In this document: positions 1,139-64,000 of the stretch, one piece after another
Layout: each line of letters opens with the position of its first letter
Numbering within the stretch: the stretch's first letter is position 1
Assembly: GCA_030324005.1 (NCBI GenBank)
Contig: JARDVH010000121.1
Location: 9,991,059 to 10,055,058 of the forward strand
Origin: Negaprion brevirostris
Taxonomy: Eukaryota
Length of the DNA stretch: 64,000 bases
Direction of reading: 5' to 3'
The notes under the pieces: model-generated
Databases searched by the model: none
What the model was told of the DNA's origin: nothing
What the model saw: only the letters and a program-made list of their open reading frames with translations
Position numbers and translations under genes: made by a program

Positions 1139-1165
1139 AATGCAAGCTGAATGACAAGCAAAAAG
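1139..1165 (+). CDS. 27-nt phase 1-1 micro-exon of putative coiled-coil gene, (E)CKLNDKQK
   Basis: Acceptor ttcgttttgcag, donor aag|gtattc. Open frame. xxKLxxKxK pattern shared with the exon at 43071. Confidence 0.65.
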
Positions 1166-2544
1166 GTATTCCGATTTCTAATTGATAAATAGTTAACTTA
1201 CTAACATAAGTACTAGCTCAAAAATTGTCCGCAGGAAGATACCAATTCTAACATGAATGTTGTTTCGCCCTTGTTTGTAACTGTAATAAGAATCAGTTAA
1301 AACTGGTGAGCAAAGAAATCTGCAACATATTTTTTTTTCCGAATGTATTCGTCTTTATGTGAAGATCGGCAAATCGATGCCAACAGTTGTGACAATGGAG
1401 ATGGCGGTCAACAATAAAACTGAGCCGTTAACGAGTAAATATTTCGCTTCCAACGACTTGCAAAGAGGACAGATAATTTACTGTTTTTCTTTACATCGAC
1501 TTTATATGCAATTGATGTAGCGAGGCAAAATATATATTGCCTCTGGCGTCACATGCACGAGGATGGCCGAATCCTTGTGTTTGTTTTTATTTTGCTGTTT
1601 TTAGTGGTCATGGAGAATCATGGACTCTATTCATTCGATGATAATCACATGCGTTTTGGCTCAATTATTCTTCAGACACTGAATGGGCGCACTGAAGGAA
1701 AATGGCTGTTCTAAGACTTTTTTTTAATTACATGTTTTGTTTAGTACAATTTAATGTCAAATATTGTTCTGCGGTTCCTCATTAAACAACAATACAGTTG
1801 GTTCGTTGTACAGGAAGTGCCAATTCAATAAATTACAGTCTCCTGATTGGGGGCATTTATAGTAACACACAAAGTACCTTCCAGAACTCAACGACACCAA
1901 GTAAACCATTGAAGAGGAAGTCCAGATAAGCGCAGGCACTGCGGTGTGGGAAATTGTTACTTCATATACAGAAAATTTTAGAATGTAATACTGGCAGAGG
2001 AAAATGGGCTCATGAGGCACAACACTGGACCAGTTTTCTGACAGATTCGTGTGCTGTCAATAGCGAAATTTAAATAAAATTGTCCAAAAATATCTTGGAT
2101 AATGACATTTTGAGTTGGAACACATTTTGATTAATCCAAACCAGTTACATGACTGGAGTTAAATTGAACTGCCTAAATTATCGAATCGATTTGGCAAGTA
2201 ATATATGGGAAAATAAAATGTTGGTCTTAACGTATATGAGGAAAGTTAGCGTGGCCAAGAGTTGGGCAGTGAATGGNNNNNNNNNNNNNNNNNNNNNNNN
2301 NNNNNNNNNNNNNNNNNNNNNNNNNNNNNNNNNNNNNNNNNNNNNNNNNNNNNNNNNNNNNNNNNNNNNNNNNNNNNNNNNNNNNNNNNNNNNNNNNNNN
2401 NNNNNNNGTCACACTTTATGAAGAAAGGGCAGATCGCGCATGAATATAATTCTAGAAGTGCATAACGCCCTTCTTAAAGTCGTCCCAACGACTTTTTCGG
2501 CTGCAGCCAGCTTCCGTCGAGAGAATGAATGTGGCAGAATTTAT

Positions 2545-2608
2545 GAACATAAGAACGTAAGAAATAGGAGCAGGAGTAGGCCATCGAGCCCTTCGAGCCT
2601 GCCCCGCC
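2545..2608 (-). mobile_element. CR1 LINE 3' terminal fragment
   Basis: aacataagaacgtaagaaataggagcaggagtaggccatcgagcccttcgagcctgc is the reverse complement of a CR1 tail. Confidence 0.8.
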
Positions 2609-2779
2609 GGTGTCTTTTTTTTAGTTTCACACACCAAGTAAAATGGTTAACGTGTTACTCACAATTAAATATTTAATTCGTCCAAACACGACGTGGTCGC
2701 ACATTCGCATGCGATACTCAATAAAATGCAATGATAACCTTAAAATAAATACACCACCGTTCTAAGAAACTCATAAGTA

Positions 2780-3200
2780 AAAAAGAAATTAAAAACATGA
2801 AGCAGGTGTGGGTCATTCGACATTTCCAGCCTCTCCGCCATTCATTGGAATCCCAGCTGAACATAAAATTGGATATTTTGACTCACACTTCCCTTTGTCC
2901 TTTTAGCCGCAAGAGTGCTACCTAATATTTTGGCGACACCAACTTTCTGTGGCAGTGAACTCCCCACATTCACCACGATCTGTTGAAGAAACTTCCCCTC
3001 GCCTCAGCTCAAATAGTTTTACTCTTATCCTCTGAATATGACACCGACTTCTGGCCTCCCCAGCATCGCGATCAATCCTCTCTGAATTCACGCCATCTAA
3101 CCCGGTTTGACTTCAGTAAATTTCGATGAAAGCCCCTCCCACTCTTGTAAAAGTAAATGAACACCATCATAACTTGGTTAGCCTCTGCTAATGTATAGAA
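2780..3200 (-). mobile_element. Degenerate CR1 LINE 3' portion
   Basis: tctgtggcagtgaactccccacattcaccac...gaagaaacttcccctc matches the antisense of the CR1 ORF2 C-terminus and 3' UTR. Confidence 0.7.
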
Positions 3201-3474
3201 ACATATAAACTTGAAAAAAAAATCCATTTAAAATTGCCGTCAATCTGCACGATGTGCAGGTATTGTCAATGCGAGAAAATAGCGTATAGATTCGGCACCC
3301 GGAATCTGAAGTTTGCCTGAAATAGTAAACGAACTGCAGATTACCTTGCTTTGTCACTGTCTCGCGTTCAAATTGGAGCAGGGTCAATAAAAATCTGAAT
3401 TTTGAATTCGCGGTACACTATTCCATTTTTTAGCAGATTTTTGTTCAAGTCTATGTGCTTCCATATGTTGTAAA

Positions 3475-3711
3475 AAGTCTGACAACACCAGGTTTTAGTC
3501 CAACCGATTTATTTGATAGTAAACTCACAAGCTTTCGAGGTTTCCCNNNNNNNNNNNNNNNNNNNNNNNNNNNNNNNNNNNNNNNNNNNNNNNNNNNNNN
3601 NNNNNNNNNNNNNNNNNNNNNNNNNNNNNNNNNNNNNNNNNNNNNNNNNNNNNCGATTTATTTGATAGTAAACTCACAAGCTTTCGAGGTTTCCCTCTTC
3701 GTCAGGTGAAT
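3475..3711 (-). mobile_element. Penelope-like pseudo-LTR end, interrupted by an N gap
   Basis: aagtctgacaacaccaggttttagtccaaccgatttatttg...agctttcgagg...cttcgtcaggtga, a typical elasmobranch Penelope terminus. Confidence 0.75.
3672..3711 (-). ncRNA. Minimal type I hammerhead ribozyme motif
   Basis: Minus strand reads AUUCAC CUGACGA A GAGG GAAA CCUC GAA AGCU U GUGAGU: stem I, catalytic core, 4-bp stem II and palindromic AGCU stem III. Confidence 0.65.
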
Positions 3712-5145
3712 GGAGAGTTCTGGCCTCAGAATATGTTAGCATATGTTAGCAGAGCTTAAGCAAGTTAATATGTTGTTGATGTGTTTTTACAAGAGCGGCA
3801 GGGGCTCTCATCTAAACTTACAAAATTCTAACCGGTTGAGACAGGATGAATTCGGAAAAGATGAAGGCGATGCTGCGAGACCACGTCATGTCGACTTCTT
3901 TTGTGAGGGTAGAATTGCTGTCATGCCAATCTGGGCATCGAATTGGAAGGGGAATGTCCAATGTTCTCTGCCCAGATGATGACAGCATATTTCCCATTAT
4001 TCATTTCTACATTATTGACTCAAATTGTGCACAATACACACATGATACTTTTGTTTACCTTGTCCATAATGCAGGTGCCATCAGCGAAACATCTTGTTCC
4101 ATTTAAAAATTCGATAACCTCGAGTATGCATCACGAACAGTACTATGACAACAGGAAGTTGTTTTTTCGAGTAGTAACGTTCAAGATATCTGACAGAATA
4201 AGGAAACGCAATACACGGTTAATGGATAATATCTAGAATGACAAAAGGTAGCATTAACATCTGTTTTTTTTAAAAAGGTCTCAGTTTGGCTGTGAGATTT
4301 AACATACCCTATTTGTAGTCCAATTTACCCTTACAGATCAAGCAAGTAATATAAGAATCTGTCGAATTACGTTTGAACTTGCGCCAAAGACTTAAGTCGA
4401 GGGCAATAACCTTATCGCAGAAATTATTCCTTTTTTCCCTAGGTTCAACATGAAAAATACAGGCTGAATCGCTGCTACTACTTTGGCGAAAAAGAGGGAC
4501 AATTTTCATCTGGCCGAGCCATGCTGTCTCTCTCTCCTGATTCTTCTCTGTCTAATTGACACTTCATCCGATCTCCGAATTTATTCCAATACTAAAGAAA
4601 GTAATATTCTGTATGGAAAATGAGTAGTCATATCTCCAGGGGCATAATTTCATTTCAATAATCTTGAATCGCTGTGCAACAAGTCATTAAATTAAACTGT
4701 TGCGGATAATTGAAAATCGAAATTTACCAATCTGTGTTGAGAAAAGAGAAGTTTGGTGGCAAGGACGCAGGATAGTGAAATAATCTTTTTTTTTCAAAAA
4801 ATGTCAAACACAGGAACACAACACTCTGAGTAGACAGAAAAACATACGAAAGCATGAATGCTATGCATGTTGTGTACATAATTTATTTGAAAATAACGTG
4901 GAACCTGCATGCTAATCGGGTATATTGCACGTAAGATATGATTGAAATGCACTGAAAAAGCTGCAACGACGAATGAGGATGAAGATTTTGGACTTGTGAT
5001 ATGTTAAACTTCACTGAGCTGGGTGTGCTTTGTACATTTACTTCTGACGGAGTGCAGGAAACACGAACGATTACTACGAGGAAATTCAGTTTAGAGCAAA
5101 TTGGCCTGCCTGTGTAATGTATATATAACCATCTTTCCATTGTAG

Positions 5146-5172
5146 AAAAACAACTGGAATCAAAAGAAGATG
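5146..5172 (+). CDS. 27-nt micro-exon (E)KQLESKED
   Basis: Acceptor atctttccattgtag, donor atg|gtaatt. Leu at residue 4, as in the other 27-nt exons. Confidence 0.75.
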
Positions 5173-6229
5173 GTAATTTTTAAAATAAATTTCGATTTAT
5201 CTTACTCTATCCATCCCTCAAACGCAATGACAAATGCGGCAGGTGGTGGGAATTTGAAAGTAAAAAACACAGTTCTGAATTTCTTCGGCAGGCGGACAAT
5301 ATTCGTTCAGTTTTAAAACGGTATATTTTCAGTTCAGCAGACTTCAATCGTATTGGAATGTGTTTGAAATTTGTTAGTTAGTCTTTCGTAACACACAGAA
5401 ACAGAAAATAGTTACTTTGGACACTTCGTTTGTAATATTTTGTTCTGTGAAGTTCGGGCTTGGATTTCGTGTCACACTTCAGTGTGGGGGTGGGGGGGCA
5501 GTGGGAAGAATAATGTGGTACTTACGTTAGTTCGCGCGGCGCAGCTAGTCTCTCTCCGCCCATAATTAACATATGCTGTGGGTACGCCCTGCATAAGGAC
5601 ATCAGAACTTAGGTGAATTGAAGCCCTGAATTTCCCGTATTAAAAGGTAATTGTGGCTCTTAATTCGCCTTTACTGTCATAGGAAGCAGCTGAATGGTTG
5701 AGTTCAAAGGCACTTCTTCAAAGGATGCGAAGGGCAGTTTCAGACATGAAGTTCTGAGATTGCACTTTGTGTTTTGTTAGAACGATCCAAACTCCAGTAT
5801 TACAATAATAAAACAAATGATCAGGTCGATTTTAGAACTCTTACACCCACAACCCACCCCTTTTCAACAAATCCTGTGCCACGTCTCTGCCCTAAAAGCT
5901 TATCAGTCCCGCGTCGCGAATATGAACTTCCTGGATCCACCTGGCTGACTCAGTGGAGACATCGGATGAATTATGCGGTTACCATGACTTCTGCAGTGTC
6001 AGGCAGTTCACCTGTGCATGGCTTATTACCAACAGAGGGGCTTTCCATCGTGCTTCCCAGGGGTTTATTGTTGCAGGCAGACTTTGTAAACATTGTTTTC
6101 TTCCTTCTACAATCAGCGTGATTTCCTTCCCAAGTCACCTGGAAATTCACCCGCGTCTGCAGAGACCTGGACGAAGCGACTGGGAAGTTTTCAAAATGAC
6201 CATTTTTCTTGCGATTTCAAACAGAGCCT

Positions 6230-6780
6230 CACATTATTAGCAAGAGTGGCCCATTCGATGCCTCATTTTGTCTTCCCCATTGAATATCAAAACATTTTAT
6301 CTGAGTGCAACTTCAAAAGGACTCCTCACGTAAACTTTCACCGTAGTGTTAATTGAATTCGTCTCGCTGGAACTTTTTCCATTATTCTGAAGTTTTTTTG
6401 TTCACCTTGTCCCGGTTTCTCCAAGTGGAAGAAACATGTTCTCCAGACACAAATTGTCCAAGTTCTTAGGAAACTTAAACGTTTCAATCAAGACAAGCCT
6501 TACTCGTCTAATCTCTGAATACTCCCAAAACCTTTCCAACACTTTTTCGTAAGAAGTTCTCGTACTCATGTATTAATCTTGTAAAAATTCTGCCGATGAA
6601 TTCTAAGGCACTTGGATCATTCCTTTCATAAGGAAATCACAGTAATCCACATGCCTGAACACTAATTGCCTATGCAAGTCAATAACGAGAGACTTACATT
6701 TGTACCAAATTGTCCTCACAGTAAACGAGAACATTCAATCACCTACCCTACCTACCTTCAGTACCGGTCAGCTCGTCTAT
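6230..6780 (-). mobile_element. Highly degenerate CR1 fragment
   Basis: Antisense CR1 ORF2 3' remnants (ttaatcttgtaaaaattctg...ggatcattcctttcataaggaaatcacag). Confidence 0.5.
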
Positions 6781-6894
6781 CATACTTGCATTCAGATTAA
6801 CTATATACAAATATTAACAGAAGTAAACGTACGATAAATATGTCAACACTTCTTGATACCTGAAATTGGTGCGTATATATCTTATTCAAAACAG

Positions 6895-6930
6895 AACTCA
6901 ACGAGTGCAAGAAAGATTTAGAAGCTTCAG
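6895..6930 (+). CDS. 36-nt micro-exon (E)LNECKKDLEAS
   Basis: Acceptor tcttattcaaaacag, strong donor cag|gtaggt. Leu at residues 2 and 9 continues the heptad. Confidence 0.75.
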
Positions 6931-8312
6931 GTAGGTAAATAGGGTTGTCATTTCCAGATAATTGGAACGATAAGAGTTTGAATAGCTGAATTAGCCTGTA
7001 ACACAAAATTGATTACATCCTCGGGCTTTCTGCTCGGGTTCTTTTTTTATTTAATTATTATTTTCATAATCAATGATAGTTAGTTCCATCTCCATTATCA
7101 AACTCAAAGATCCCATCAAGTAAATGATTTTGATATAGGCAACTCACTTCCTAAATGGACTTTTTTTTCCCCATATTCCTCCTCGGGAATGATGGTGATT
7201 TTTTTTTTCATTGACGCTGCAGTTGATTTATTCGCCAATTTATCTCAGCAAACTTGAAAATAATGACAAATCTGGCCGTTTAACGTGGTATGGTTAATTT
7301 TCTCGCAAATATAAAGGTACTTGAATAAATCACCAACTACCAGTTACAGTTTGGCAAGATATAAGACAGAAGCTAAGACATAGCTGGTTTGCAAACTCAT
7401 GTTTTCCGTGAATTATTGCGAAATATTCGATTCGAATCTTGCAACTGGAGATGATTTTCTGTTCGGGGTTTAAACGAAGAAACGTATTTTTAAACAACTG
7501 AAGGCACATTTACTGGCCACGTTTTATTTATTTTCTTGCTTTGCAATGTTATACGAAAATGAGGAGGGATCTGGCATACTTGGCAAGCAGAATAGCATTC
7601 TTCAATAGATGTTCCCAAGATCAAACTCAGTGAAAATGGACTATTGACGAGTGACAAGTGTGTAAAACGAGTGCAGAAATCCCTTGGGGAATCAATTGAC
7701 AATAACTGTACTTGTGCGAACAAACATAAAAACATGCCATCATCTAATTTAAGTTATTGGCATTGCCCTAATTATTTTTTGGGAAAAAAGCCAAGAGTGA
7801 AATGACACAAAATTTTGCGAGTAGTTGTTGCACCTGCCAACCTTGGGTTTGAAAGAATATAAGAGCTGCAGATAAAGAAGTGACAGAACAATTTAAAGGC
7901 AGACAACGAAATGAGAAATTGTAGTAGCAATCCCTGATAGTTAATCACGAGAAGAATTGGGATTAAAAAAAAACATGAAGGTGGTTGGACGGAAGTCACA
8001 ATTTATGCCTTGCTGATACAATTTTATTTCCCCAAACGAAAAAAAAAATGTTAACATGTATAGAAATTTCAATTCATCAAGTTATTACACGTTTTATGGT
8101 TTGTGCCGGTACATGCACCATTAAGATTTTGGCTTGTATGGAAATACTAAAGCAAACATATGTTTTGTGAAACTAATTAATTATTTGCGGTTTGAGGAAA
8201 AGACGTTCAAATGCATTATGCACGACTTCATTGCTTGTTCAGTTCGTATGGAATATTACAGTTAATTCTGCATCCGAGCCTCGTTCACCATTCAGATCCA
8301 TGTTGCCTGATC

Positions 8313-8631
8313 ACATAATCATAGAATCCGTGCAGGGCAGAAGGAGGCCTTTCAGCCCATTGAGTCGACACTGATCACAATCCCACCCAGACCCTATCTC
8401 CATAAATCCATGCATTTATCCTGGCTCGTTTCCCTGACACGAATGGATTACTTTAGTATGGCCACCATCGTAACTCGCACATCTTTGACTATGGGAGGAA
8501 AGTAGACTGCCCGAGGAAACCCACGGCAACACATAAAGAACGAGCAATCTCCACACAGTCGTGGCCACAATCGAATCCGAACTCTTGGCGACGTGAGACA
8601 GTAGTGATAAACACAAAGCCACCGCGTCACT
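8313..8631 (-). mobile_element. HE1-like V-SINE, near full length, with CR1-type tail
   Basis: Tail catagaatcc...aaggaggcc, V-domain tgggaggaaag...ccgaggaaacccac, tRNA-derived head gtgagacagtagtgataaacac. Confidence 0.85.
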
Positions 8632-9129
8632 CATCAGCAAATCTTAATTTCATTTCCTAAATAAATAACATTACCTTTGCAGTCTTTGCCTGAAAAAAAA
8701 GTCTGCGGCGTGCAAATGAATTATTCCCGAGCCTAATCGACGATGTGTTTCAAAAGTCTCCGCATTCGGCCAATGTAAGTGCTAATGAGCAGGCGGACCC
8801 TTTATCCTGCTCTTCCCATCGGAGACCTGGTTACTTTCTATAAATGGATTTGCACTAATTATACATTTGCAACTTACCGATGAAATTTTGATTGAATAAA
8901 CTCTAATCAGCAGGATAAAATATACCAGACGGTGCATTCGATCATAGCGTAAGCCGGTTTAGACTGAAATCAGTTGGACAATGATTTACACGATTCAATG
9001 TGCACGAAGGTTGTGCAGAAAAGATTTCAACCAGGGCCAAAAATGTGAAATGACATATCGGCCGTTTTGAATGTTCATCGAAATTGATTAAATGATTTCC
9101 AATATTTTCATGTTTTTTTTTCTATGCAG

Positions 9130-9156
9130 AAGACAGTCTGAAATTGAAAGAGAATG
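9130..9156 (+). CDS. 27-nt micro-exon (E)DSLKLKEN
   Basis: Acceptor tttttttttctatgcag, donor atg|gtattt. Resembles the exon at 17864. Confidence 0.75.
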
Positions 9157-10954
9157 GTATTTTGTTCTCCCTGTTATTTTAGATGCCACAGACTGCAATA
9201 AACTGGCAATGAAAAACTGATTTGCGTTTCAAGGTTCAAGGGAGGTGGGCCAACGACGTCAACGTGGGGACTTGGTTGTGGGTGATGTTTGTTGTGTTTC
9301 TATCGAATGTCATGTGTCGGCACCGTCGTTAATCATACGTTGGAAAGGTTTAAACTGTCTCTCAGCCAAGAAAACAGCAAAACATCAGGAATGGACATCA
9401 GTCTTCTGCTAAATTCAGCGAATAGAATCCTTCCCAGGGCAGAGTAATTTTCTAATTGAAGTTTACACTTCCCATGCAATAAATGTGGATTCTGTTCGTG
9501 GTTACGTCTCAATGCCTCCCTTTCGCATATCGCGCATTCGTCGCCCATAAATGAAAAATTACGAAATAACGTTTGTCTCTGGATATTAGCTACATTTATT
9601 TCATTATTTCTCTACTTTTGTTCTCATTCTTACATTGCAATGCATGTTAACCGTTCTATATGTGGGGTGCTGCACACCTTGATAGCATATTAATTTGCAG
9701 TGCATCACATTGCAATTCATTCCTCCATGCATGACTCCATGATTTTCAGTATGTCTGCTCTGCTGACGGCAATGCAATTCAAAGACCAGCTGCACGCTTT
9801 TTTTGCGCTGTTCTATTCAGCGTTGATTCTACGGCAGAACACTGAATTCAGGCTTAGAAATGTGTAGGTTACATTTACAAGATGAGCTGGTCAAAGCTCA
9901 AAGAGATTGGGCCAACTCTTCCAATCACTTTAATACATGAATTAATAAATTATTTGCAAACATTTAAGAATCGCGTTCCACGCAGTTTAATGCAATTCTG
10001 ATGAGGATACTGCAGTTCGTTATGCGGGAATGCCAACCTATTGGCCAGCGATTTGAATGTCCCAATGGCATTCTGGGGAAGCGCTCCTCAATGTCAACAA
10101 ATACGTTTATTCTCTGCTGAACTTCCCAACGCTTCACCCATTTTTAGCTCTGCAGTTACACTAATTACTGCTACGATCATATAAGGAATCCTTCCTTCTG
10201 CATTCATGTAATGTTACAAGTACGTAATTGAGCACACTGCAGTATTTTCGTCCTTACCTTCAGATATCGGCAAGAAAATCCTGAAACCACCTAACATATG
10301 AGCTGACTTCTTTAATCGTTTTTGATTATCATTTGAACGCATTACTCCAAGTGAGCACTCAACCAATCAGTCCGTATGTGGCTCGCTGACAACATGCCAT
10401 CGGCTGGTACCAGTAACTCGCCATGAGAGTTCATAACATAATCAAAGATTTACTGTTTGGGAAAAAAAGAAGTGCAATCATAAATGTAGAAGACACGGTC
10501 ACCACGGATCAGAATCAATGCGCTTTTAGTCTGGCAGAATGTAGTTTTGGCTGCCGAAACATATTGAGAGAAGTGGATTTGCATATTTGTATGCAGCATA
10601 ATTAATATTCCACCCTTGAGAAGTTTTTTTTTAGAGGGGTGGGGTGGGGGGGACCGAAATCGCAATGCAAAACACTGCATGTTGCACTGGGCAGGTCAAG
10701 AGCGATAAAATACAATTGGCAACTGATCACTGAACACAAACTTGAAGAACAGGAAGGCACAGATTTGCTAACACGTGTTTTCTGGTTGATAAAGTTGCTA
10801 TGCATTAGCGCCAAGGAAAAGCCGCACCCAAAATCAACTAAATAATTTACAAGATTTAGCCATTAAATTTTGCTTGCAGAGAATGCATTTCAGCAAGAGT
10901 CAAGCACGTTTGTGCAAATCAGAAAAAAAAAACGACATGGAACCGAACACTAAA

Positions 10955-11625
10955 AGCGGCAACACAGTTGGACAAGGTAGACACAGAGGCATACGGGAAG
11001 CTTGCCCTCATCTGTCCGGCACTGAATATGAAATTTCGCAAGTCATGCCGCAGCCGTACAGAATCTTATTTCGGCCTAGTTTACAATATTGCGTGTAATT
11101 CTGGGCGTCATACTACCAGGACGTCGTTGATGTTTTGCGGGGGGTACAACAGAGGGTTTCCAAGATATTGTCTGCTGTGGAGGTAATTAGTTGTCAGTAG
11201 AACTTGGATAAGTTCCGTTTGTTCTTAATGGGACAGCGGGGGCGGAGCGGTGACTTGATCGAGATTTAAAATATTATGAGCAACATGAACAGCGTGGCCC
11301 GTTAGAATTATCTTTCCAATGGTAGAAACGTCCAATACTCAGGGTCATATGTTTAAAGGGCGTGTGACAAAGTTTAGAGCAGATGTGCGAGGCAAGTTGT
11401 TTTTTTTTTACACGGAGGGTGATGAATATTTGGAACGCGCTTCTCGGGGACTTGCTGGGACGAGGTACGATAGCAGCATTTAAGGGGTAAATTGACAAAT
11501 GCACGCATACGATGAGAATGGAAGGAAACAGACTCCATACGTGCATGCAGGTTTTTTAAGCAGGTATCATGATGGGCGCAGGCTTGACGGGCCGAAGGTT
11601 GGTTCCTTTTCCTTGTGCTTTTCTT
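10955..11625 (+). mobile_element. CR1 LINE 3' fragment (ORF2 C-terminus and 3' UTR)
   Basis: ggtgacttgatcgag..., ttttacacggagggtgatgaatatttggaacgcgct, terminal gggccgaagg. Confidence 0.85.
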
Positions 11626-13018: not shown

Positions 13019-13054
13019 ACCTGACTTCATGCACACGATCTATAAAGGGATTAG
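13019..13054 (+). CDS. 36-nt micro-exon (D)LTSCTRSIKGL
   Basis: Acceptor cattctatctcacag, donor tag|gtaaga. Cys at residue 5 as in 6895. Ends gattag|gtaag as 20962 does. Confidence 0.75.
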
Positions 13055-49975: not shown

Positions 49976-50071
49976 TTATTTTAAACTCTGTCTTTTATAG
50001 TGTGAAGAATCAAATTTGGTCATGGCTAACCAAATTTGATTTTTCGGAAATCGATGTCCAATGTACACAGG

Positions 50072-50144
50072 ACATAGAACATAGAACATAGAACATAGAA
50101 CATTACAGCGCAGAACAGGCCCTTCGGCCCACGATGTTGCGCCG
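50072..50144 (-). mobile_element. Young CR1 or SINE 3' end with (CATAGAA)4 tail, running into a gap
   Basis: acatagaacatagaacatagaacatagaacattacagcgcagaacaggcccttcggcccac. Confidence 0.85.
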
Positions 50145-50993: not shown

Positions 50994-51064
50994 CAGCAAG
51001 AAGTCTCACAACGCCAGGTTAAAATTGGTTTTACTTTAACCTGGTGTTATGAGACTTCTTACTG
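50994..51064. repeat. Hairpin formed by two inverted Penelope termini
   Basis: cagcaagaagtctcacaacgccaggttaaa / tttaacctggtgttatgagacttcttactg. About 30-bp arms, same terminus as 3475-3500. Confidence 0.8.
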
Positions 51065-52004
51065 ATTTTAATTTTGCGGGCCTACGCTTTGAACAGTCTT
51101 GCGTGATTTTTTTTTGTCCTTTTTTTTGCAGAATATCACACTAACTTTTTTTTTACTTAAAGCGATTATCACCCTTAACTGACTCGGAGCCTCGTTCAAA
51201 ATATTCATTTTGAAGTGCCAATTATCGCCTTGAGATTGTCTCAAAATAATTCATGAACATTCCGTTTCAGGTGAAGACCATGTCACTCATACATCTCATA
51301 ATTCCACCGATCATCATCAGTGGAAATTATTTCCTCCCACACCAGTATTGAAACGATCCAACGCATTTACCCGACAGCTATTATTCGGATATTTAGATAT
51401 TGATCCACATGTTGTTAAATTGAGGTTCATTTTCTTCTAATTCAGCTTTCAATGGGATAGGCAGCCAAGTACGCCAAATTTCCTTAACATCGACATTTAT
51501 CTTATACATAGATCGACCACGGGGAATGCATTTTTCTGCATTCATGTAAATCTTGTTCTCTGCCTGAGAACAAAATCCGCATTAATATCACGGGCAAGGT
51601 CACAATAGCTCCATGTTATCGATTACGTACNNNNNNNNNNNNNNNNNNNNNNNNNNNNNNNNNNNNNNNNNNNNNNNNNNNNNNNNNNNNNNNNNTTTTT
51701 TTAATAAATGGTGGCGTGGACACTCGATCAACTGCTCAGAAAACCTTCCTATAAGCTCGTGAGGTCTCAAACCTGTTGGACAATTTAAACGTTGTGTCAT
51801 CTTCCTTTCGATGTTTGGTTTGCTTCACGTCACACCTTTCTCCACTTAACCATATGCTATACAAAAAATCGATTTTGGAACATGTCACTTTAATTCATGA
51901 TTTGCGTACTGCACCAGAGATTATAAGAGTAGTCAGGATCCTCTGAGAAGTGCAGCCAATGCATCAACCTCAGGAATATTTTTTTTTTTAAAGACAGCAT
52001 CGTC

Positions 52005-52500
52005 GAAAGTAGGGGCAGAAGTAGGCCATTCAGCTCTTGGAGCCTTTAACAACATTCAGTAAGATCTTGGCTGGTAATTCACTATATCTTCACACCCCTT
52101 GATCCCTTCAACGACAAAGGCCACGTCCATCTCCCTCTTCAACACATCTAAAGAATAGGCCCCGACAGCGTTCTGCGGTAGAAAATTCGACATGGTTGCA
52201 ACTCTCTAAGTAATGATTTTCTTCCTCTTGCCAGTGCTGAATGGCCTACCTTTATTCACAGACTTTTCTCCCCGCAAATCCCCAACATCGGTACCATTCT
52301 TCCCGCATCTAGCCTGCCCAGTCGCATCAGAATTTTGTACATGTCTATGATTCCAGTGAGTACTAGCTCAGTCGATGCAATCTCTCTTCATAAGATAGTT
52401 ATCCCATTCCATGAATCTGTCTACTGAACATTCGCAGAACTCCTGCAACCTGAAAGAAAGTGCTCCCTTATACCAGGAAAGCAAAACTGCACGGTATCCC
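52005..52500 (-). mobile_element. CR1 LINE 3' fragment
   Basis: taggggcagaagtaggccattcagc...ttctgcggtagaaaattc...aaaactgcac. Confidence 0.8.
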
Positions 52501-52723
52501 ATGTAGCCTCTGGGAATTACATACTATCGTCTCCATATTATTGACGTTATTGCACTGCACACTTTAGGACATATGCATGCCCTTTATCAAAAGAAGAACT
52601 TGTGCAACAGAAATTACATTTGGTAATTCGCTTTAACATGCAGCGCGGATTTCTATTCTTAATTTCTAACATGCAACAATTGGAGCGTTTGTTGAAATGC
52701 AGTTGTCTCCGTCTTTTGAGCAG

Positions 52724-52750
52724 AAAGAAAACTCAAAGCTACAGCAGAAG
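52724..52750 (+). CDS. 27-nt micro-exon (E)RKLKATAE with GC at the donor
   Basis: Acceptor ctccgtcttttgagcag, boundary aag|gcagct. Paralogue of 36112. Confidence 0.5.
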
Positions 52751-53446
52751 GCAGCTAATATTTCCTGAAACAAATAACATGTGGTCATTGCATATAATCT
52801 TTCTCACTTTGGAAAATGTAAATTCACAACGCCTCAAAGCATTCAGAAAAAAACAACCCATGCGACATTCGAAGTGATCTGCTGTGGATGTTGTTTTCCT
52901 TCTGAGGTGCGGAGTTTTGGCTGAAGCTTAAATGGGTAGTTGGTAAGAATGAACAAAATAAGACATGGCACAACTTCTAGTATCTAAACCACTGACTGAA
53001 CAATTGCCAGTCATCTTAACGGCAAGAATAAGTTAATGTCATTAGAGTTTTTGGTGAACAGTAATGTCGTATATTTAGAATCAAGAAATTTAGCGCACAA
53101 TAGGCTAATTGCGAAATTGATTCGAGGCAGGCATCTACTTGCAGACGGAGTTAGAGAGTGGTGGGCGGGAAAGATCAAAATTCAAAATGGTTAGCAACGC
53201 TATCCATGTATCTAATTTTGGCCTGACCAGGTTTCGCGTATTGTACGCAGGGTTGGTCATCCTTATGGATAATGACACGAAGCGTTGGGGAGGCAGTAAA
53301 CATGCTGAGGTGGATAATAGGAGATATCCACGAATTTATATTTAAGACAACAATAGGCCAATTGGAACTGACAAACGGTGACTTGATAAATGTGCTAAAA
53401 TCAGCGAAACAATGCGTGCCATTTCACGGAGGAATATAGACAGAAA

Positions 53447-53472
53447 TATATATATATATATATATATATATA
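53447..53472. repeat. (AT)n microsatellite
   Basis: Directly visible. Confidence 0.9.
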
Positions 53473-54349
53473 AGTAACAATGGTTGCCGATGTTGAAGGC
53501 ATTTTAATATCATTTTTGAACATAACTTTCAATAGACTGCATATCTTGAAAATCGGCCAGTAGTTATATTTGCATCATAGTCATCTGGTGAGTTGTTGGA
53601 ATTGACGACACGGCAGCATTGCTATCGTTCAGGAACTAAGTTTTTGGTATAAAACCAAAAGTGAAGTTACAACATTGTAACAGCTGGAGAAGAATATTGA
53701 CAGAAGTTCTGCAAGGATACGGTTACCGTTGACTCAATTCGTGACACTGTTCTTTAGATTCAGGAACTATTTGTTCCTTGTATAATTTCTGAGTCTCGCA
53801 TTTAAACCCCAGAAGGAACAGATTTGGGATCCAGAAAATTGATGTAACAATAAAAAGATATACCGAACATTCAGTTAATTAAATTTGTTCCCTACGTTGC
53901 GACAATCAAAATAGCCTAGAAAAAAATGGAATTTAAGTGAAACATATGCCCACACTTTATTCTGTATTGATGCGTTGTTGAGCCGCCAAGTCTTAATACT
54001 ACCTCAGTGAAAACAACTTTTTAAATTTGCTTTGCACATCACCCGATATTGTGCGTTGCCATTGCGTTCATCTGCTGCTTAAATGTGAACGATTCAAATG
54101 TTGAGTACTATGTAGCCCTCCGGGACAAAACATGCGCTTCAGAAAATTTAAACAACAAAGTACATTTAGATGTTATTCGATGAAAGATGGAATAAATGAA
54201 ATCAAATTGGGCTGCGCGACGAGGAGTTAAAGAGAACAACTGCTCAGTTGTGGTGAAGGTTTGGATGAAGCTGGGGAAAACATCTGAGAAGCTTGACTCG
54301 AGGTCAGAAGCTGACAAATATGGGCAGTTTTTCGTGCTTAAAATTGCAC

Positions 54350-54665
54350 TGAGGCACAATGTTTACTACTGCTGCCTCACCGCTCCACCTATCCGAGTTA
54401 AATTCCGGCCCTGGTTTACTGTCGGTGTGGAGTTTGCAAGCTGTCTCCATTTCTCCGGGTGGTAACGCAGGGTTCTCAAGTATGTGCAGAAAAATTGGAT
54501 TTGCCATGGTAAGCTGCCCCTAATGTGTAGCCTATGTGGATTAGGGGTGATGCATGCCCTTGATCGTGGGATGGGGCAGAGACATGGACAGATGCAATTC
54601 GAAGGGTCGGTGTAATTTCGATGGGCCGGTTGGCCCTTTCCTGCCCTGCAGGGATTCTTACTTAT
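54350..54665 (+). mobile_element. HE1-like V-SINE with CR1-type tail
   Basis: actgctgcctcac...gtgtggagtttgca...gatgggccggttggccc...gggattct. Confidence 0.8.
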
Positions 54666-54914
54666 GAAAGTAGAAAGCAATTTTCAGATCCAATTTTGTG
54701 GTCAATAATTAGAGCCAAAATTGTTTCCTGGATTCTCAAGGAATTTGGAGTTTGGAACATAATTGGTTTGATGATATATCATATTATATATGATGTGACA
54801 TTGTGCTATATATATGTAATAAACGTGTATTTATTAGTCACAAGTAAAACTTACATTAACACTTGACGAAGTCATTGTGGGATTCCCATTGATATAGGCA
54901 CAGATATGGATGTA

Positions 54915-55250
54915 TGCACCGGTTGAATGTTCGATTTGGGTCACAACCCGTGCGAATTCTGCACATTCTCCCCATGTCTGCGTGTGTTTCCTCTGTGTGT
55001 TCCTGTTTCCTCAGNNNNNNNNNNNNNNNNNNNNNNNNNNNNNNNNNNNNNNNNNNNNNNNNNNNNNNNNNNNNNNNNNNNNNNNNNNNNNNNNNNNNNN
55101 NNNNNNNNNNNNNNATCTATTAGTTAGGTGAGTTTTTCATGCTAAATTATTGCTCAGTGTATAAGAACAGGCGACGGAGAGTGGGGAATGGGTGATTTTT
55201 ACAGTAACTTCATTGCAGTGTTGATGTAACCCTATTCTGACACAAATAAA
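54915..55250 (+). mobile_element. V-SINE of the non-CR1-tail subfamily, gapped
   Basis: tgcacattctccccatgtctgcgtg...gaacaggcgacggag...acagtaacttcattgcagtgttgatgtaa...tgacacaaataaa. Confidence 0.8.
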
Positions 55251-56366
55251 TATGTTTGAAACAGACTAAAAAACATGGGCTCCAAGGGTTTCTCTATGGG
55301 TGGTATTTTCTTAGTCGCATTCATACGCACGTCAGCAGGAGATTAGCAATGATGCAAAAAACAAATGCATTTCACGTCTGGAGTGTTTACCTTAACGATA
55401 CGACTAATTTAACCAGGAACTACGTGTCCCTCTTGGAAACAAATTTACGAAAAGGGACACATTGATCGATGTATATGTATTTCGAAATGACCAATAGTGG
55501 TCATTTGCAATTATGCATATTTGTCTGGATTAGNNNNNNNNNNAGTTTGGTGAGACGCATACATCAAAATGGATAGCACAGGCAGTCTTTTTGTAAACAG
55601 TGAAGAAAAACTATTTTTTTAAAGTTAAAGAAAATAACAATGTACATGAAATCGAAGCGCATGATGCCCGATGAAAATTAAGTGTACGAATTTCGAAAAT
55701 ACCAGCGAAAATAGCAGCGTTTCCCGGAGATTATCCCTCGTTTCCATATTATATGGATGTTCTCAGAACACAATGAGGCACACCTTTCCGAAATAACGTG
55801 TCTTTGTAATAATATAAGCCAAATCCATCACACACTTTCCAAAAAAATGCAGTTCGAATGAGCTGTCTGGGATGTCATCGTTGTCGGCTTTCTGATGCTA
55901 CCACACCATGTTTTATTGAGGAGAATATCTGCTGTATGAATTGACTCTGAATCTTAGAACAATGTGGCTCTCGTTGGATGTTGGCTTGTCTGGCGGTTCG
56001 ATAGAAAGTAGCATCTTGGCCTGTCATGTGTACAGTGACTACTCCCTCCGTTTCGTTTCACTAATATTTCAAATTGTATTTCGTTGTCTGCATCTCTCAA
56101 AAATCGTCACTAGAGAAGTTAGTGCATTGTTCTTTCATTCCTCTGTGTATCTGATTTAGTTTCGATGTCTATTACTTTTTGCTGCTGGGAAAATCACATT
56201 ATTATGTTTTTTTTTTCAATGCTGGTTACTATGGCGGCTAGCAGGAATTCAACCAGTTTCTGCACAATTTGGGGTCCATGGTTATTGTTCTTTTTTAAAG
56301 CATTTTTCAGCATTTTCCACGACAATATACTAATTAAACCTTTTTTTTTTCAATTTACTTATCCAG

Positions 56367-56402
56367 CATTAGACAACTACAACGCTACATTGAAAGAGTC
56401 TG
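56367..56402 (+). pseudogene. 36-nt pseudo-exon (A)LDNYNATLKES with donor GT>TT
   Basis: Acceptor caatttacttatccag. Followed by ttcggaaaatg, versus gtctgaaaatg and gtcagaaaatg in its paralogues. Confidence 0.6.
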
Positions 56403-58188
56403 TTCGGAAAATGTGTTTCTTGATATACTTTGTTCTGAAGCATTCATATTATTTGCTAACGACTGCAAAAGTATTATCAGACTTTTTTTTGCAGTATGAT
56501 ATCTTTATTGTACTGCGTGTGGTTCTAATTATTCCTATCAGATTACAAATTATGGATCCCCAACTCATGCGACATGATACTTGTTCACTTCATAATGTAA
56601 CACCTCTCAGGAAAATAAATTATTTTTTTCTCAAAGGCATTTTAATGTTAGCGGGATAGTTTTGACCTTCTATATTTCAATATTTCTATTGAAATTCAGT
56701 TAAATTTGCAAGTGAAAATTAAACAACCATTGAATTCAGTAAACACGTCCCTGTTGCACTGCATTACTTTAGCTATGGAAAGTTGCCATATTTTCCCAAG
56801 CGGCCTCTATGTATTGAATCAGAACTGACGACTGAGATGACCCAGACAACAACTTAGTTAATGGTATAATGGCGGAACAACAAGTGATGCTTAGCTATCA
56901 TTAAAAAAAAATCATTAAATAATTAAATGGTTCCGGGGCGAAAGAACTGCGATGGATATTGCTACCGTTAGGTAGCCTGAAGAACATGAAGCTAATTTAA
57001 AAAAAAACACACATAAAAGTGAGGTAACAAAGGACAATCTTAATTCGATCAGTAATGTATTTTACTTGCACGTAAAGTAAATAAGGCATGCAGAATGTAG
57101 GACTGCAACAAATGAGTGGCCTGAGTTGAGATATATCCGGAAGTCATATGGCGGGGAAACGGGGAATCTGGCATTATTGAGTTTTTAAATGTTTGTTCTG
57201 CTTTTCCTCTACAACGAAAAAGAGTTATCCGGTACACAAAGAATAGAAAGTTTGAAGTTTCATTGACTGACTTGGGAATGGCAAGAACATATGGTTAGGC
57301 TGGATGCTCTTAACAATTAGAAGATTCCCCGCACAAGTTAAAAAAGTGAAACCACTTACAACAAACTTTAACAGAGAAAGGAGGAGGCAGTGCACCAGTG
57401 ATGAAGATTTGAAAATGTTGCACCATTTTAAGGATGCAAAACATCTGCAGGACAATCTGAATACCCTCCTCGTTGGGGTTGTTTTCAAAAATAATATCCA
57501 TGTATGATTATAGATAGCCATGTCGACAACTATATCTCCCCATTTGAAGGCGGTTTGTGTAGGACGAAATTAACTTTTTTTTTATCGAATCACGCTTACA
57601 AGGTAGAAAAGTATCTGGTTGTCCACAAAGATAGTCATTTAAATAAAATGACAAAATCCATTTGGTCGAGTTCAACATAACAAACTAATCAGAAATATTG
57701 AAGCCAATGCGACAAAACAGTTCGGGAAGCATTGATGAAGAGCACGTTGTTCTACAGGGGAAAAAAAACAGGTAACTGTTTACCGTTTAAAATCGCATAC
57801 AAATGTTTTCCATTGACAGCTGCTATGGGTGTTAAAAAAAGAACAGTTTTCAATGCTCTGTTGAAACGATGTTTTGGGCTATTTCGAATTTTGTTAATGA
57901 CAGCGATGAATGCTGAACGGATTTAAATGTAGGAAACCAGAATCGGAATTTAGAATAAGGAAACATCAACTAGTTAAAGACATCAACTTTCAAACTTTGT
58001 TATTCGATGAACTAATGCATTCCTTGAAAAGTAAGAACATGATCTGTAATCTGCATATCTTGAAGCTGTTTCAGTCTGTTACACCGCCGTAAATGTAAGA
58101 CAATATTCTAAAACAGCGCAGTAGCAGCTGTGTGCAATCTGAATGTTATTCCAAATGGCGTTTTAAAGAGAAAAATGTTTTTTTTTAG

Positions 58189-58215
58189 AGGAAATGTTGA
58201 GGATTAAAGATGACG
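58189..58215 (+). pseudogene. 27-nt pseudo-exon (E)EMLRIKDD with donor lost
   Basis: Acceptor tgtttttttttag. Followed by acaattatt, versus gtaacaactttt after paralogue 17864. Confidence 0.55.
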
Positions 58216-59332
58216 ACAATTATTTCAACATTATTTTTGAGCAATTAATTTGAGATACCCCCAGTAATCCCCCAGTTGAACTTAAATAATATGCTTTTAT
58301 CACAGGTCGGGGTTGTCTTTTAACTGAACGTTTTGACTACTGATCAGGGACAAAAAAAAGNNNNNNNNNNNNNNNNNNNNNNNNNNNNNNNNNNNNNNNN
58401 NNNNNNNNNNNNNNNNNNNNNNNNNNNNNNNNNNNNNNNNNNNNNNNNNNNNNNNNNNNNAGTACTCGATTTTCAGCTGCTGGCACTTTACGAGTATTTT
58501 ATGGAGGCTGAATTCCTGAGACAGATTATTGTTATTGCCCTCTGGATTTACAGATGGTGAAGGTGAGACCCATATGTTCTTTGCAACACAATTAATGGTC
58601 GATAATTGTCCAAATACTTACGATTAAATTCTTGACATAAGCATGTTCAACAACATCGTATCAATCGTGTTCAGTATGAAAAGATCCTTCCGCCAGTATC
58701 AATATTTCGGGTAACAAGCAAACAAGTATAATTATTTAAAACAAAATCGCATCTTCGAGCCTCAGCAGCATTTACAGAATCATTCCAAGTCTGCTGGTCA
58801 TTTTGCGTTGTTTAATTTAATTATGTCTCTTAATTACATGATATGTTTCCATGTTTTCCCACTTCATATTTTGAAATATTGATTGAATTGCACACATCGT
58901 TATACATTCCAACTTGTACATTACGCCTTTAATAATCTTCCCCTCAATTAGCTCCGGGATTATCTTTAGCATCAGGTTACTAACACATTCAATCCCCTCA
59001 ACGTCAAATAACAAATATCAAGTTGTAGTTTTCAAAACTTTTATCCATATTTAGTCTAACCAACGACGAGAAAAGCTCACGCATTAGTAACATTTCAATA
59101 GATTTTAAAATCTGTGTTAGTCATTCAACATGCTAAAACTTTGTGGTCGGGCTAATTGCCGCAGCCATGTTTTTTTTTGACTATGCTCAATATGGCCTTT
59201 TCCCTACAGAAAGTAAAATCACATTTAACTGATCCTGAAGACTGCAAGCGATCAGATGTTCATATGTATCAGGCATTGCTGTAGAAATCAGTTAATCGTC
59301 TTTTTTCCCCCTCGCTGTTTCTCGAAATGCAG

Positions 59333-59368
59333 AACAAAAGAATTCCGATGAATCATCAAAAGAAATAG
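59333..59368 (+). CDS. 36-nt micro-exon (E)QKNSDESSKEI
   Basis: Acceptor ctcgctgtttctcgaaatgcag. Donor tag|gtagggacaagccttcatggcac, versus gtaaggaaaaggcttcatgcac after 20997. Confidence 0.7.
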   Translation, partial: NKRIPMNHQKK

Positions 59369-60552
59369 GTAGGGACAAGCCTTCATGGCACATCAAAATT
59401 TTAGCACCCTTGAAATTCATTATTTGTAGAAAATTAATTGTCCCCTGAGTAGATGGCACTCCGCAAATTAAGTGAAAAGAAAACAGAACGATTGTTCAGT
59501 TTCACATTAGTCTCTGATGTGCGTTTGTGTCCACGCCTGCGCGCATCTGTGTGCGTGTGTTCGTGTGTGTCTATGTACCTGTTTGTGCTCAGTGATTTAC
59601 TTGTTCAAAGTTCTTGAAATGCGACCCATTATTCCGCATGTTTTTTTTTCAAACATGTATGGCAAATATATCCTTGTCAGAAACATTGTTGAAGGAATGT
59701 CAGCATTGTTTATATACTTGCGCTCGCCTCTGAGACAAAATTACACAGTAAAACATTTGAATACATCAGTAACGGCGTGCAGTTCGATGTTCAAACGAAA
59801 TATGGAGCAGGACGTTAATGGTACAAACCAGTAAATATAACTCAATGCTAGCAGTGAATGATTCGATGCAACCCTGAACATGTCGCAGGGCGAAAAGCAT
59901 CATTTGCGTAAGAAAGTGCAACGTTTCTCGAGTCACATTATTTGCTTCATAACTATTCGTATGCAATGAATTTTCGAAAGGACTTCTGCTAGAAATGCGA
60001 GCTGTTCGAAATGTAGGGAGAACAAGGCCACATCGTCATATTTTCTCAGCACTTACTATTGTCGCCAACGTCACTCCCAGTACATTAGCAGATACTGCCC
60101 CAAAGGTAGATACCGTGGAAACGGAGGTCAGTGTTTTGATTACCATGATACTTTCCCTATCAATATTGTCTTCAGAAGAAACAGACAGAAGCATTAGGAC
60201 GCTTTTGAATGCGATATTTTATTGTATTTGCACACGAACTTGCGATCATCTCTCTATCTTGGACCGCATACAATTGCGGAAAAACATAAATTAAAATAAT
60301 TAATTTGATCTCATTCGACTGTAAATTGACACACGTATTGTAAAAAATTAGCACAATGAATTGTGAAGCAATGACCAAATATGCANNNNNNNNNNNNNNN
60401 NNNNNNNNNNNNNNNNNNNNNNNNNNNNNNNNNNNNNNNNNNNNNNNNNNNNNNNNNNNNNNNNNNNNNNNNNNNNNNNNNNNNNNNNNNNNNNNNNNNN
60501 NNNNNNNNNNNNNNNNNNNNNNNNNNNNNNNNNNNNNNNNNNNNNNNNNNNN

Positions 60553-60789
60553 GCGGGGGGTGCGGTGGGAGAACAACTTTGGAGATGGGCGGAAAGACAG
60601 GTGAGTGATTTGATGTGTTTTAATGCAGTTTAAATATGTTTTCACTGTCATTACCGGGAACTTGTCGGTGCGGATTGAATTTTCCAGCACGCTAGGAGCA
60701 CTTAAGCCCGGCCAGATTTAGAGGTGCTCCACACGTTCGGGGAACTAGTGGAAGGCCCCACCGTAATGAAGCGGGGCAATCGGGGTCCA
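60553..60789. mobile_element. GC-rich DNA transposon remnant (Harbinger-like end)
   Basis: GC-rich block after a gap, ending aatcggggtcca, similar to aatcgggccca at 25230. Confidence 0.4.
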
Positions 60790-62110
60790 AAAAGAGATCA
60801 TTTCGGGAAAGTTTTGTCAATGTTATCTTCGAAAAAAAAATCAGCAACAGCCGTTTTAATATTTAGCATGATGAATTGAATGCGAAGTGTATATTTGTTT
60901 TTGCTAAGCTCTTCAGTGCAGTTTCCGTGGCTAGCAAACTCTTCGTTATTCAAATTGACGTTTTCTTTCCTGCAAACTTGAACAGTTCTCTTTTGCAGTG
61001 TGTTACACTTAGTCATGCTGTTGTTCACTTGGAAATGAGCTGAGCTCGTGTCCATGAGAATAGACACAAGGAGCCATTTCATGGCGAACAGCAATGGGCG
61101 AACAATTGTCTTGCCACTGTTAGTGCTGCATCAAACTATACCATCCTTGTACATTTTCACATTCTTCAATCTCCAGTTTATTTTTAACAATATATTTGCC
61201 GCTTTCTCTTTCTCAACTCGAAATTCAACATGGTACAGTCATACAGTAGTGGGTTATCGTTAACATTTGCTTACAAATTCAGTCATATGCTAAGGCAATG
61301 TTTCCCACAATAGAGGATTTTATATGTGCACTGAGAATCAATTCTGGAGCATTCGGAACAGTCTCCAGTCCTCCAAAATTCCAGTAAGATCCATGATGTT
61401 GAACAGCAAAGTCGCCGAGAGTCATGCCAGCCATAGACAAGCCCTCCCAGTTTCCACCCTTGCTATAAATCTGAACTTGTTCAAGATTTATGATTGTCGC
61501 TATTTTTGTTCTCCTGCATCGGATCTAACTGTAGTATTGCATGCTAAGACTTGGAGCCCATTGTGGATGGTAAACCCCAGATGAAGTCCGAGATGCAAGT
61601 TATTCGGGGGTGCCGTACCATTTTACACTGTTTACCATGTCTTACATCCAAAAGCTAATTTAAGGCAGATATTCCGTTTGCAGCTTCCACAAATTTTGGA
61701 TTTGTTCCTAAACAGAAAACAGGCCATATCACTTAATCCAGTTTTAACAAATGCAGCTTTCCGTTTGCTCTCTGTTCAGTCGCTCTGTCAACCTGCCATC
61801 GGTGTTGTGGATGGCTCTATAGACTGCAACATGTCTTTGAAGCTGTTTCTGTGGCAATCTGGAAAAGTATATTTCACACAATAAAAGTGTGCTCCCTATG
61901 AATAACAAACAGTCCCGTTATCTTATGGGAGACAATCAAAATGAAAATACGTTGCCTACACATACTTCAGCCTCAAAAAATCTCTGTTGTCACTCCTCTA
62001 ATAATCAAAATGTGGGCATGTAGCACAATATTTTGTTCGTGAATTCACATTGAGAAATGTATTCCACCAGCAAGGTTTTACTGACAGTGTTAGTAACGTT
62101 CATATTTCAG

Positions 62111-62134
62111 AAAATTTGCATGGAAAGATCATGA
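62111..62134 (+). pseudogene. 24-nt degenerate exon copy (E)NLHGKIM
   Basis: Acceptor ttcatatttcag, weak donor tga|gtagat. ENLHGKI resembles EKLKGKV (43071). Lies at the expected position after 59333. Confidence 0.35.
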
Positions 62135-63994: not shown

Positions 63995-64000
63995 AATTAT

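Follow-up and report, generated by a model that had tools for sequence, protein, structure and literature searches.

Chicken BG genes and butyrophilins encode coiled-coil heptads in micro-exons, the CD23 stalk is a 21-residue repeat, and the mammalian enterophilins join long leucine-zipper heptads to a B30.2 domain without Ig or RING domains. Chicken BG has roughly 27 to 37 exons, mostly of 21 nucleotides (nt), along with an IgV domain and a transmembrane exon, has no B30.2 domain, and lies near the major histocompatibility complex (MHC) (PMC5938342, PMC4046983). Codons 4 and 7 of BG exons are heptad positions a and d and are hydrophobic, and BG tails bear conserved Cys on the cytoplasmic side (PMC5938342). 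Butyrophilins place heptad micro-exons before a B30.2 exon (PMC6790196, PMC4046983). Linkage to the MHC is described as common in butyrophilin and BG genes but not universal (PMC12841164).

Here we describe a probable gene of this general design in Negaprion brevirostris. The window, by which we mean the whole 64,000-nt stretch that was analyzed, lies on contig JARDVH010000121.1 (C121; G000:C121:9,991,059-10,055,058). An earlier note had proposed that it holds part of a hidden gene of phase-1 micro-exons in which 27 + 36 nt encode three heptads, perhaps the stalk or tail of a lineage-specific immune-type receptor, and had likened it to BG, butyrophilins, and CD23. The hidden gene and its three-heptad unit are borne out by our analysis. 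The comparison with BG and butyrophilins also stands, as the array terminates in a B30.2 exon; the one with CD23 does not, since a CD23-like lectin receptor has a C-terminal C-type lectin domain and the arrays described here end in B30.2 exons.

The gene containing the window, which we call G5, is like chicken BG in having many split-codon heptad micro-exons with hydrophobic codons 4 and 7, Cys in the coil, and a variable exon number (PMC5938342, PMC4046983), and the register of its 27 + 36-nt unit is the register reported for BG exons (PMC5938342). Unlike BG, it uses that 27 + 36-nt unit, has 160 or more exons over 0.9 Mb, and ends in a B30.2 domain, with no Ig domain found. With butyrophilins such as BTN3A1, G5 and its neighbor G6 share short heptad exons followed by a B30.2 exon; in contrast to this family, butyrophilins have IgV and IgC domains, a transmembrane segment, and only a few heptads (PMC6790196, PMC12841164). 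The family's B30.2 domain also differs from that of butyrophilins in occupying a separate long branch and in missing the Pfam PRY domain. Where BTN3A1 has the His of a His-Tyr pair (His351, a numbering we inferred from PMC10533412), the family has Thr or Ser, and phosphoantigen sensing by its B30.2 domain therefore seems unlikely from sequence. TRIM proteins carry RING and B-box domains before the coil, neither of which was found in the scanned open reading frames (ORFs) or in 10 family members. Enterophilins, which we compared with G5 by description only, are much shorter. We regard the family as a variant of the heptad-exon/B30.2 design that has not been described before, one that likely lacks Ig domains and reaches megabase scale; it is neither a TRIM nor a CD23-like lectin.

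A micro-exon array ending in a B30.2/SPRY exon

The window is a middle slice, about 7%, of what is probably a single gene of ~905 kb, which likely splices 160+ phase-1 micro-exons into a predicted coiled-coil rod of at least 1,600 residues with a divergent B30.2/SPRY end and likely without Ig or RING domains. Micro-exons persisted on the plus strand across the 864 kb first examined and further out. The array spans from ~535 kb upstream of the window to a B30.2/SPRY exon 306 kb past its end, so that the feature bounds given in the earlier note (1139..62134) fall short by hundreds of kilobases on both sides.

The array stands out by length, strand, frame, and order. The splice-site weights in our scripts, like the Ig and RING motifs, were approximate. 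Across 1.56 Mb with the coding filter off, there were 73 segments of 27 nt on the plus strand versus 24 on the minus strand, and 86 versus 16 of 36 nt; each of the remaining 47 lengths from 12 to 60 nt gave only 5 to 27 on the plus strand. Among these exons, selected by splice score only, phase 1 was open in 66 of the 73 shorter ones (other phases, 40 and 38) and in 75 of the 86 longer ones (other phases, 22 and 51). Core positions were hydrophobic in 47/73 of the 27-nt exons and in 62, 57, 52, and 37 of the 86 36-nt exons, compared with ~15% elsewhere. Between 9.400 and 10.361 Mb we called 156 micro-exons on the plus strand (75 of 27 nt, 68 of 36 nt, and 13 of other sizes) versus 8 on the minus strand, and a nucleotide profile added 14 with AG and GT/GC ends. 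Neighboring calls alternated between 27 and 36 nt in 103/136 pairs (10,000 shuffles: mean, 68; maximum, 93), and in 61/71 pairs without an intervening N gap. A tight 27-nt exon pattern had 10 matches in the 2.69-Gb genome, 8 of them on C121 at 6.46 to 10.15 Mb, and a reversed control had none. The same pattern also matches contigs C1167 and C9051, and unplaced pieces of these genes may exist.

The 27 + 36-nt pair encodes three heptads. Within this unit in G5, positions 4, 11, and 18 are hydrophobic in 77 to 84% of exons, position 7 is K in 41/73, position 14 is C or L in 44/64, and position 21 is L in 31/64. Cys itself occupies position 14 in 24 of the 64 36-nt exons. The 155 G5 calls from 9,456,014 onward encode 1,590 residues.

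At its 3' end, G5 has a phase-1 B30.2/SPRY exon on the plus strand (C121:10,360,663-10,361,196; L052:5605-6138) that contains a 10-N gap. Both halves around the gap are open, and the phase is compatible with that of the micro-exons. No other B30.2 match was found between 9.39 and 10.36 Mb in the sequence read. The B30.2 exons of G5 (at L052:5960) and of its paralogue G2 (at L143:9299) are each split by a 10-N gap with a few letters repeated on both sides, as in contig joins, and such gaps would be miscalled as frameshifts. Toward the 5' end, also on the plus strand, are two exons common to G2 (C121:9,456,014-9,459,486), recognized by comparison of the two genes, and a block of at least seven single-heptad 21-nt exons (C121:9,509,382-9,539,576); a 21-nt block lies near the 5' end of G1 as well.

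Within the window, the loose count of 27- and 36-nt segments with splice sites and an open frame, a null comparison the earlier note had suggested, gave 13 on the plus strand and 5 on the minus strand against a mean of 1.2 (maximum, 4) in 100 Markov resamplings. A model trained on the wider array, with leave-one-out scoring of GT-donor training members, gave 16 candidates on the plus strand and none on the minus strand, and no tandem repeat covering the window exons was found. We support 16 intact phase-1 exons in the window (seven of 36 nt, eight of 27 nt, and one of 30 nt). The segment that closes the range given in the earlier note, 62111-62134 (24 nt), scores poorly at both splice sites (acceptor, -1.2; donor, -4.2) and is not supported as an exon. 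All window features below are on the plus strand, and the whole window (1..64000) falls within G5.

The five segments on which the proposal had been built are at 5146..5172, 6895..6930, 9130..9156, 13019..13054, and 17864..17890. All are at the coordinates stated there; each has a pyrimidine-rich tract and AG, a GT donor, and an open phase 1, and a script reproduced the joined peptide, with L or I at 4, 11, 18, 25, 32, 39, and 46, and with Cys at positions 14 and 35. All five are supported by splice sites, an open frame, and the trained model, with further support from the joined peptide (6895 and 13019, both 36 nt with Cys at heptad d) and the genome-wide 27-nt pattern (17864). They are followed by 36-nt exons at 19024..19059 (Cys at heptad d) and 20962..20997 and by a 27-nt exon at 19829..19855, all three supported by splice sites and the trained model; the exon at 20962 is divergent, with a low peptide score (1.6) and a nucleotide profile score of 19.0. 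The largely alternating sizes reported earlier are strictly alternating over these eight exons (5146-20997), where heptad position a is L, I, or V in 9/12 heptads, but not over the rest of the window. Elsewhere, splice sites and the trained model support 27-nt exons at 1139..1165 and 43071..43097, 36-nt exons at 29302..29337, 49227..49262, and 59333..59368 (divergent), and a 30-nt exon at 45816..45845 that would shift the heptad register. Two of the eight 27-nt exons, at 36112..36138 and 52724..52750, were found by the trained model and have GC donors; in the former the GC may be a minor donor or a sign of decay.

Five additional copies with a damaged donor or acceptor were detected by nucleotide profile. 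The 36-nt module at 832..867 has an open frame and a broken donor, AT instead of GT (score, 39.4); identical letters occur in a contig of DNA run X1 spanning 500-2276, although X1 may be the assembly's own source. Another at 1885..1920 is dead, with an in-frame stop and a broken donor. The 27-nt module at 28385..28411 is open but has TG replacing its AG acceptor, and broken donors mark a 36-nt module at 56367..56402 (score, 15.8, near threshold) and a 27-nt module at 58189..58215. Two segments were left uncounted: one of 18 nt that has a good donor and looks like the beginning of a 36-nt exon (25425-25442), and one of 36 nt that is marginal because its acceptor is poor (56983-57018).

Six related genes and a cartilaginous-fish B30.2 subfamily

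G5 is one of six related genes (G1 to G6) within 4.7 Mb of C121. The earlier note missed this scale (~0.9 Mb, six genes), as well as the many modules with broken splice sites. After G5 comes a second array, G6, ending in an intact B30.2 exon at 10.952 Mb whose best solved-structure match is BTN3A1 (E = 7e-25). Four further B30.2 exons of the subfamily lie at 6.228 (minus), 8.311 (plus), 8.805 (plus), and 8.850 Mb (minus), each with 27- and 36-nt exons upstream on its own strand. G1/G2 and G4/G5 form head-to-head pairs, and two cluster genes follow another member's B30.2 exon within ~55 to 60 kb. The extents of G1 to G4 rest on samples; no exon was called in three samples of 10 kb taken from the G2 span or in several further samples. 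The G5 5' exons at 9,456,014 and 9,459,460 match two in G2, with surrounding introns that are mostly unalignable. Downstream of the cluster (L135:7549-8220, minus strand; C121 11.03 Mb) is an open frame whose translation has a hydrophobic leader and repeats rich in Pro, Ser, and Asp; it had no match in the protein-cluster atlas.

We searched 1.84 billion protein representatives with the G6 B30.2 domain. Eight close single-domain relatives emerged, of which two are unnamed and the six named are all from cartilaginous fishes, in agreement with the lineage restriction suggested earlier. All 10 family proteins that were scanned matched SPRY only, with no Ig, RING, B-box, or PRY, while the other 68 scanned proteins also matched PRY and many carry RING, B-box, or Ig domains. 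In a tree of 77 B30.2 domains, a 100/100 branch of ~1.2 changes per column separated 6 local and 8 database members from 63 TRIM/butyrophilin domains; the tree was midpoint-rooted only, without an outgroup, and of the 150 hits it omitted the majority of those having more than one B30.2 stretch, along with some further ones. The family branch excludes all 10 Ig-bearing proteins, shark butyrophilin-like ones included. Bowfin and gar models (P0107, P0064) with a hydrophobic segment, coiled neck, and canonical B30.2 domain, and no Ig or RING, form a separate lineage of lectin-receptor-like layout.

The full layout of rod and B30.2 domain is present in a 1,697-residue model from the elephant shark, Callorhinchus milii (XP_042192744.1, "nuclear-pore anchor-like"). 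This protein splits into 9- and 12-residue units far better than its shuffles (-35 versus mean -179, maximum -150; n = 60), but a bowfin coil that does not belong to the family outscores its own shuffles as well, so the parsing test is not specific. Between this model and an older one of the elephant-shark gene there are 13 indels, of which 8 measure exactly 9 or 12 residues; in three species, paired isoforms differ by 9, 7, or 6 residues. Models of the same subfamily are C. milii XP_007898089.1, Scyliorhinus canicula XP_038668997.1 and XP_038672308.1 ("TRIM39-like"), Narcine bancroftii XP_069775385.1, the skate Leucoraja erinacea XP_055510696.1 (through its cluster representative), and Cetorhinus maximus XP_078422387.1. 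The last 27-nt exon of G4 matches, at 7 of 8 residues, the stretch immediately preceding the B30.2 domain of a catshark model, and the two B30.2 domains are 74% identical. Like G5, the cartilaginous-fish models have a coil and SPRY domain of this subfamily, no Ig or RING, and 9- and 12-residue units; unlike G5, they are mostly short (175 to 460 residues), under names unfit for their domains, and the G5 B30.2 domain is less than 45% identical to the 8 compared. A word-indexed search with G6 and G5 B30.2 pieces, a weak search restricted to longer proteins, found none; the elephant-shark rod as query matched only its older model; and the atlas of protein clusters returned generic SPRY clusters. 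In the literature we found no description of this family or of its cartilaginous-fish gene models, although supplements of genome papers could list these genes. Exon-by-exon orthology between G5 and the elephant-shark protein was not found.

Selection, module turnover, and rival explanations

Intact and damaged copies in G5 differ in more than their splice sites. In-frame stops were present in 0/144 copies with intact AG/GT versus 4/41 broken or GC copies (Fisher P = 0.002), and at a lower threshold in 1/147 versus 4/50. Under neutral decay at the splice-site rate, ~9 of 137 intact copies would be expected to have a stop, and because the intact copies are stop-free, G5 looks maintained despite its silenced modules. 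Among 41 similar G5 exon pairs, exon identity was 0.80, a value biased by selection of pairs at an identity of at least 0.75, and flanking introns were 0.54 identical (random, 0.49); mismatches by codon position were 0.17/0.14/0.30, highest at the third. A scan without the AG/GT requirement found 32 additional broken modules on the G5 strand, 5 of them in the window, versus 3 on the minus strand. The locus thus looks like exon birth and death in a gene under selection, with the gene maintained while single modules go silent. TG is the commonest form among the 16 broken G5 acceptors (TG, 8; GG, 0), and TG-type acceptors may be working noncanonical sites rather than dead exons. Several broken acceptors have a second AG 2 to 6 nt downstream.

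A number of observations weigh against a single maintained gene with a continuous rod. Splicing of the window micro-exons is inferred rather than observed, with indirect support from gene models of other species, and scans for a G5 start codon and N terminus yielded candidates only. The stop test is weakened by profiles trained on stop-free calls. About one in six of the 27/36-type modules in G5 (32/183) has broken splice sites, and the heptad register moves whenever one is skipped. Damaged copies adjoin each other no more than expected by chance (7 versus 5.4, P = 0.28), and they restore alternation no better than shuffled labels do (P = 0.53). Since they are not significantly paired, the protein should contain some shifts of register; there is no support for the notion that modules are lost two at a time or that the broken ones fill the breaks in alternation. 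DNA run X1 does not bridge the 10-N gap in the B30.2 exon, its contigs ending on each side. Runs of N make up 122 kb of the span, 49 of them long enough to conceal a gene boundary or a B30.2 exon, and called exons lie up to 33 kb apart, so that G5 may be two genes rather than one. As for the database relatives, they are computed gene models; the pairing of G5 with XP_042192744.1 is weak (98/51), and the order of G5 exons is not collinear with that protein (Spearman 0.04, 44 exons).

Could the array be an artifact or a ruin? Segments this short do arise by chance, as the minus-strand count in the window illustrates, but neither fortuitous resemblance to splice sites in purine-rich introns nor a repeat would give the preferred lengths, the bias to one strand, the alternation, the clustering within the genome, and the matches in other species described above, and no tandem repeat covers the exons; we count this explanation as refuted. 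That G5 is decaying, or is two shorter genes, so that no full rod is made, is unlikely. It would fit the excess of broken modules over the examined part of G6 (1/44), the register breaks in the second half of the window, the large N runs, and two duplications near the 3' end. In one, a 36-nt and a 27-nt exon recur in inverted orientation on the minus strand, adjoining the sense copies (L049:7200-8850; C121 ~10.331-10.333 Mb), and this duplicate may be real or an assembly artifact; the other is an identical 27-nt exon at C121:10,307,615 and 10,308,936 (L047) with flanks 89% alike, a recent tandem or assembly duplication. Against decay or division stand the stop-free intact exons, the open halves of the B30.2 exon, and the lack of a second B30.2 match in the sequence read from 9.39 to 10.36 Mb.

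The remaining alternatives concern the 5' end. A true butyrophilin- or BG-like receptor, with Ig and transmembrane exons hidden in assembly gaps, would account for the butyrophilin layout of heptad micro-exons before B30.2 (PMC6790196, PMC4046983) and for the BG-like register with hydrophobic codons 4 and 7 (PMC5938342), and N gaps of 2 to 4 kb do occur in the 10 kb preceding the 5' exons that G2 and G5 share. Yet a scan of 314 (137 + 52 + 125) upstream ORFs of the six genes turned up no Ig, RING, B-box, or lectin family, even though four of these genes are head-to-head and two closely follow another B30.2 exon. The ORFs were at least 75 or 88 residues long, with low-complexity ones dropped, the set of 125 restricted to those with Cys, and N gaps outside the scan. 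An Ig-type receptor ectodomain is thus not supported by the ORFs scanned, and the inspection of the flanks that the earlier note had suggested yielded B30.2 exons but neither Ig nor lectin exons. A V-set search had no match at C121 6 to 11 Mb among 150 scored of 927 candidates, a lower bound. Four V-set Ig exons occur on C121 at 2.2 to 3.7 Mb, at least 2.5 Mb from the cluster. MHC class I matches on large scaffolds are on C84 and C59 and class II alpha matches on C84, with none on C121, so the cluster is not on an MHC scaffold; a search for class II beta found nothing anywhere in the genome. At 85 to 101 Mb, C84 has a large cluster of other B30.2 exons beside its MHC I and II-alpha matches. 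With the SPRY-only scans of all 10 database members and the exclusion of Ig-bearing proteins from the family branch, a hidden receptor of this kind is quite improbable, and because the Ig, B30.2-tree, and MHC-linkage results all point elsewhere, we do not file the family with butyrophilins or BG.

The main rival, which we regard as possible but the less favored, is that the same gene begins with an N-terminal signal peptide or short membrane anchor, giving a secreted or tethered protein whose periodic Cys cross-link the chains. No clear internal transmembrane exon was found before the heptads, only short hydrophobic ATG candidates. G5 has a candidate 145-nt exon at C121:9,417,265 (acceptor, 7.1; donor, 7.5) with an ATG and hydrophobic stretch that ends in phase 1, and G2 has a similar short hydrophobic frame (donor, 7.8) 6 kb before its first called exon. 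These two did not align, however, and no acceptor lies within 260 nt of the G2 candidate; peptides of this kind arise by chance from T-rich introns, and several matches of the same scan are run-ins to known micro-exons. Both elephant-shark models begin with hydrophobic and then basic residues, but three other named models have no hydrophobic start. A search of the genome with the first 127 residues of the elephant-shark model found no match (best E = 2.6), and no 5' exon stood out. The bowfin and gar layout would fit an anchored form, as would the Cys at unit position 14 in 24/64 exons, although BG tails bear their conserved Cys on the cytoplasmic side (PMC5938342).

A possible scaffold and its meaning

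On balance, we favor an intracellular scaffold or spacer over the secreted or anchored form. In this proposal, tandem duplication of 36 + 27-nt pairs would lengthen the rod. Since the exons are symmetric in phase 1, any module could be lost in frame, and single modules could be silenced by splice-site mutation. The protein would be a parallel coiled coil of paired chains, if continuous ~240 nm long for the called residues (at 0.1485 nm per residue) and up to ~300 nm with unread exons, with B30.2 heads at one end of the rod, far from the N terminus. It could act as a spacer presenting a protein-binding B30.2 head, like the cytoplasmic half of a butyrophilin or BG with far more heptads.

Among the contributions of this locus are its arrangement of six genes, the 5' exons that two of them share, and a tally of silenced modules. 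A six-gene, 4.7-Mb cluster of this kind would be difficult for annotation to detect, and its relatives go by misleading names ("TRIM39-like," "nuclear-pore anchor-like") without the domains of those proteins. It extends the heptad-exon design of butyrophilins and BG to a two-exon, three-heptad unit and a much greater length, with a B30.2 subfamily that, among the named relatives here, occurs only in cartilaginous fishes. Because symmetric exons allow modules to be added or silenced without a frameshift, the locus offers a direct view of exon birth and death. More speculatively, a family of megabase genes peculiar to cartilaginous fishes may have persisted in them from before chimaeras and sharks diverged, with hundreds of 9- and 12-residue exons, a quarter-micrometer rod, and a distinct B30.2 head. 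The length and register of the rod might then be tuned by silencing single exons at their splice sites over evolutionary time, and perhaps through alternative splicing or TG acceptors, in a recognition or structural system without a counterpart in bony vertebrates.

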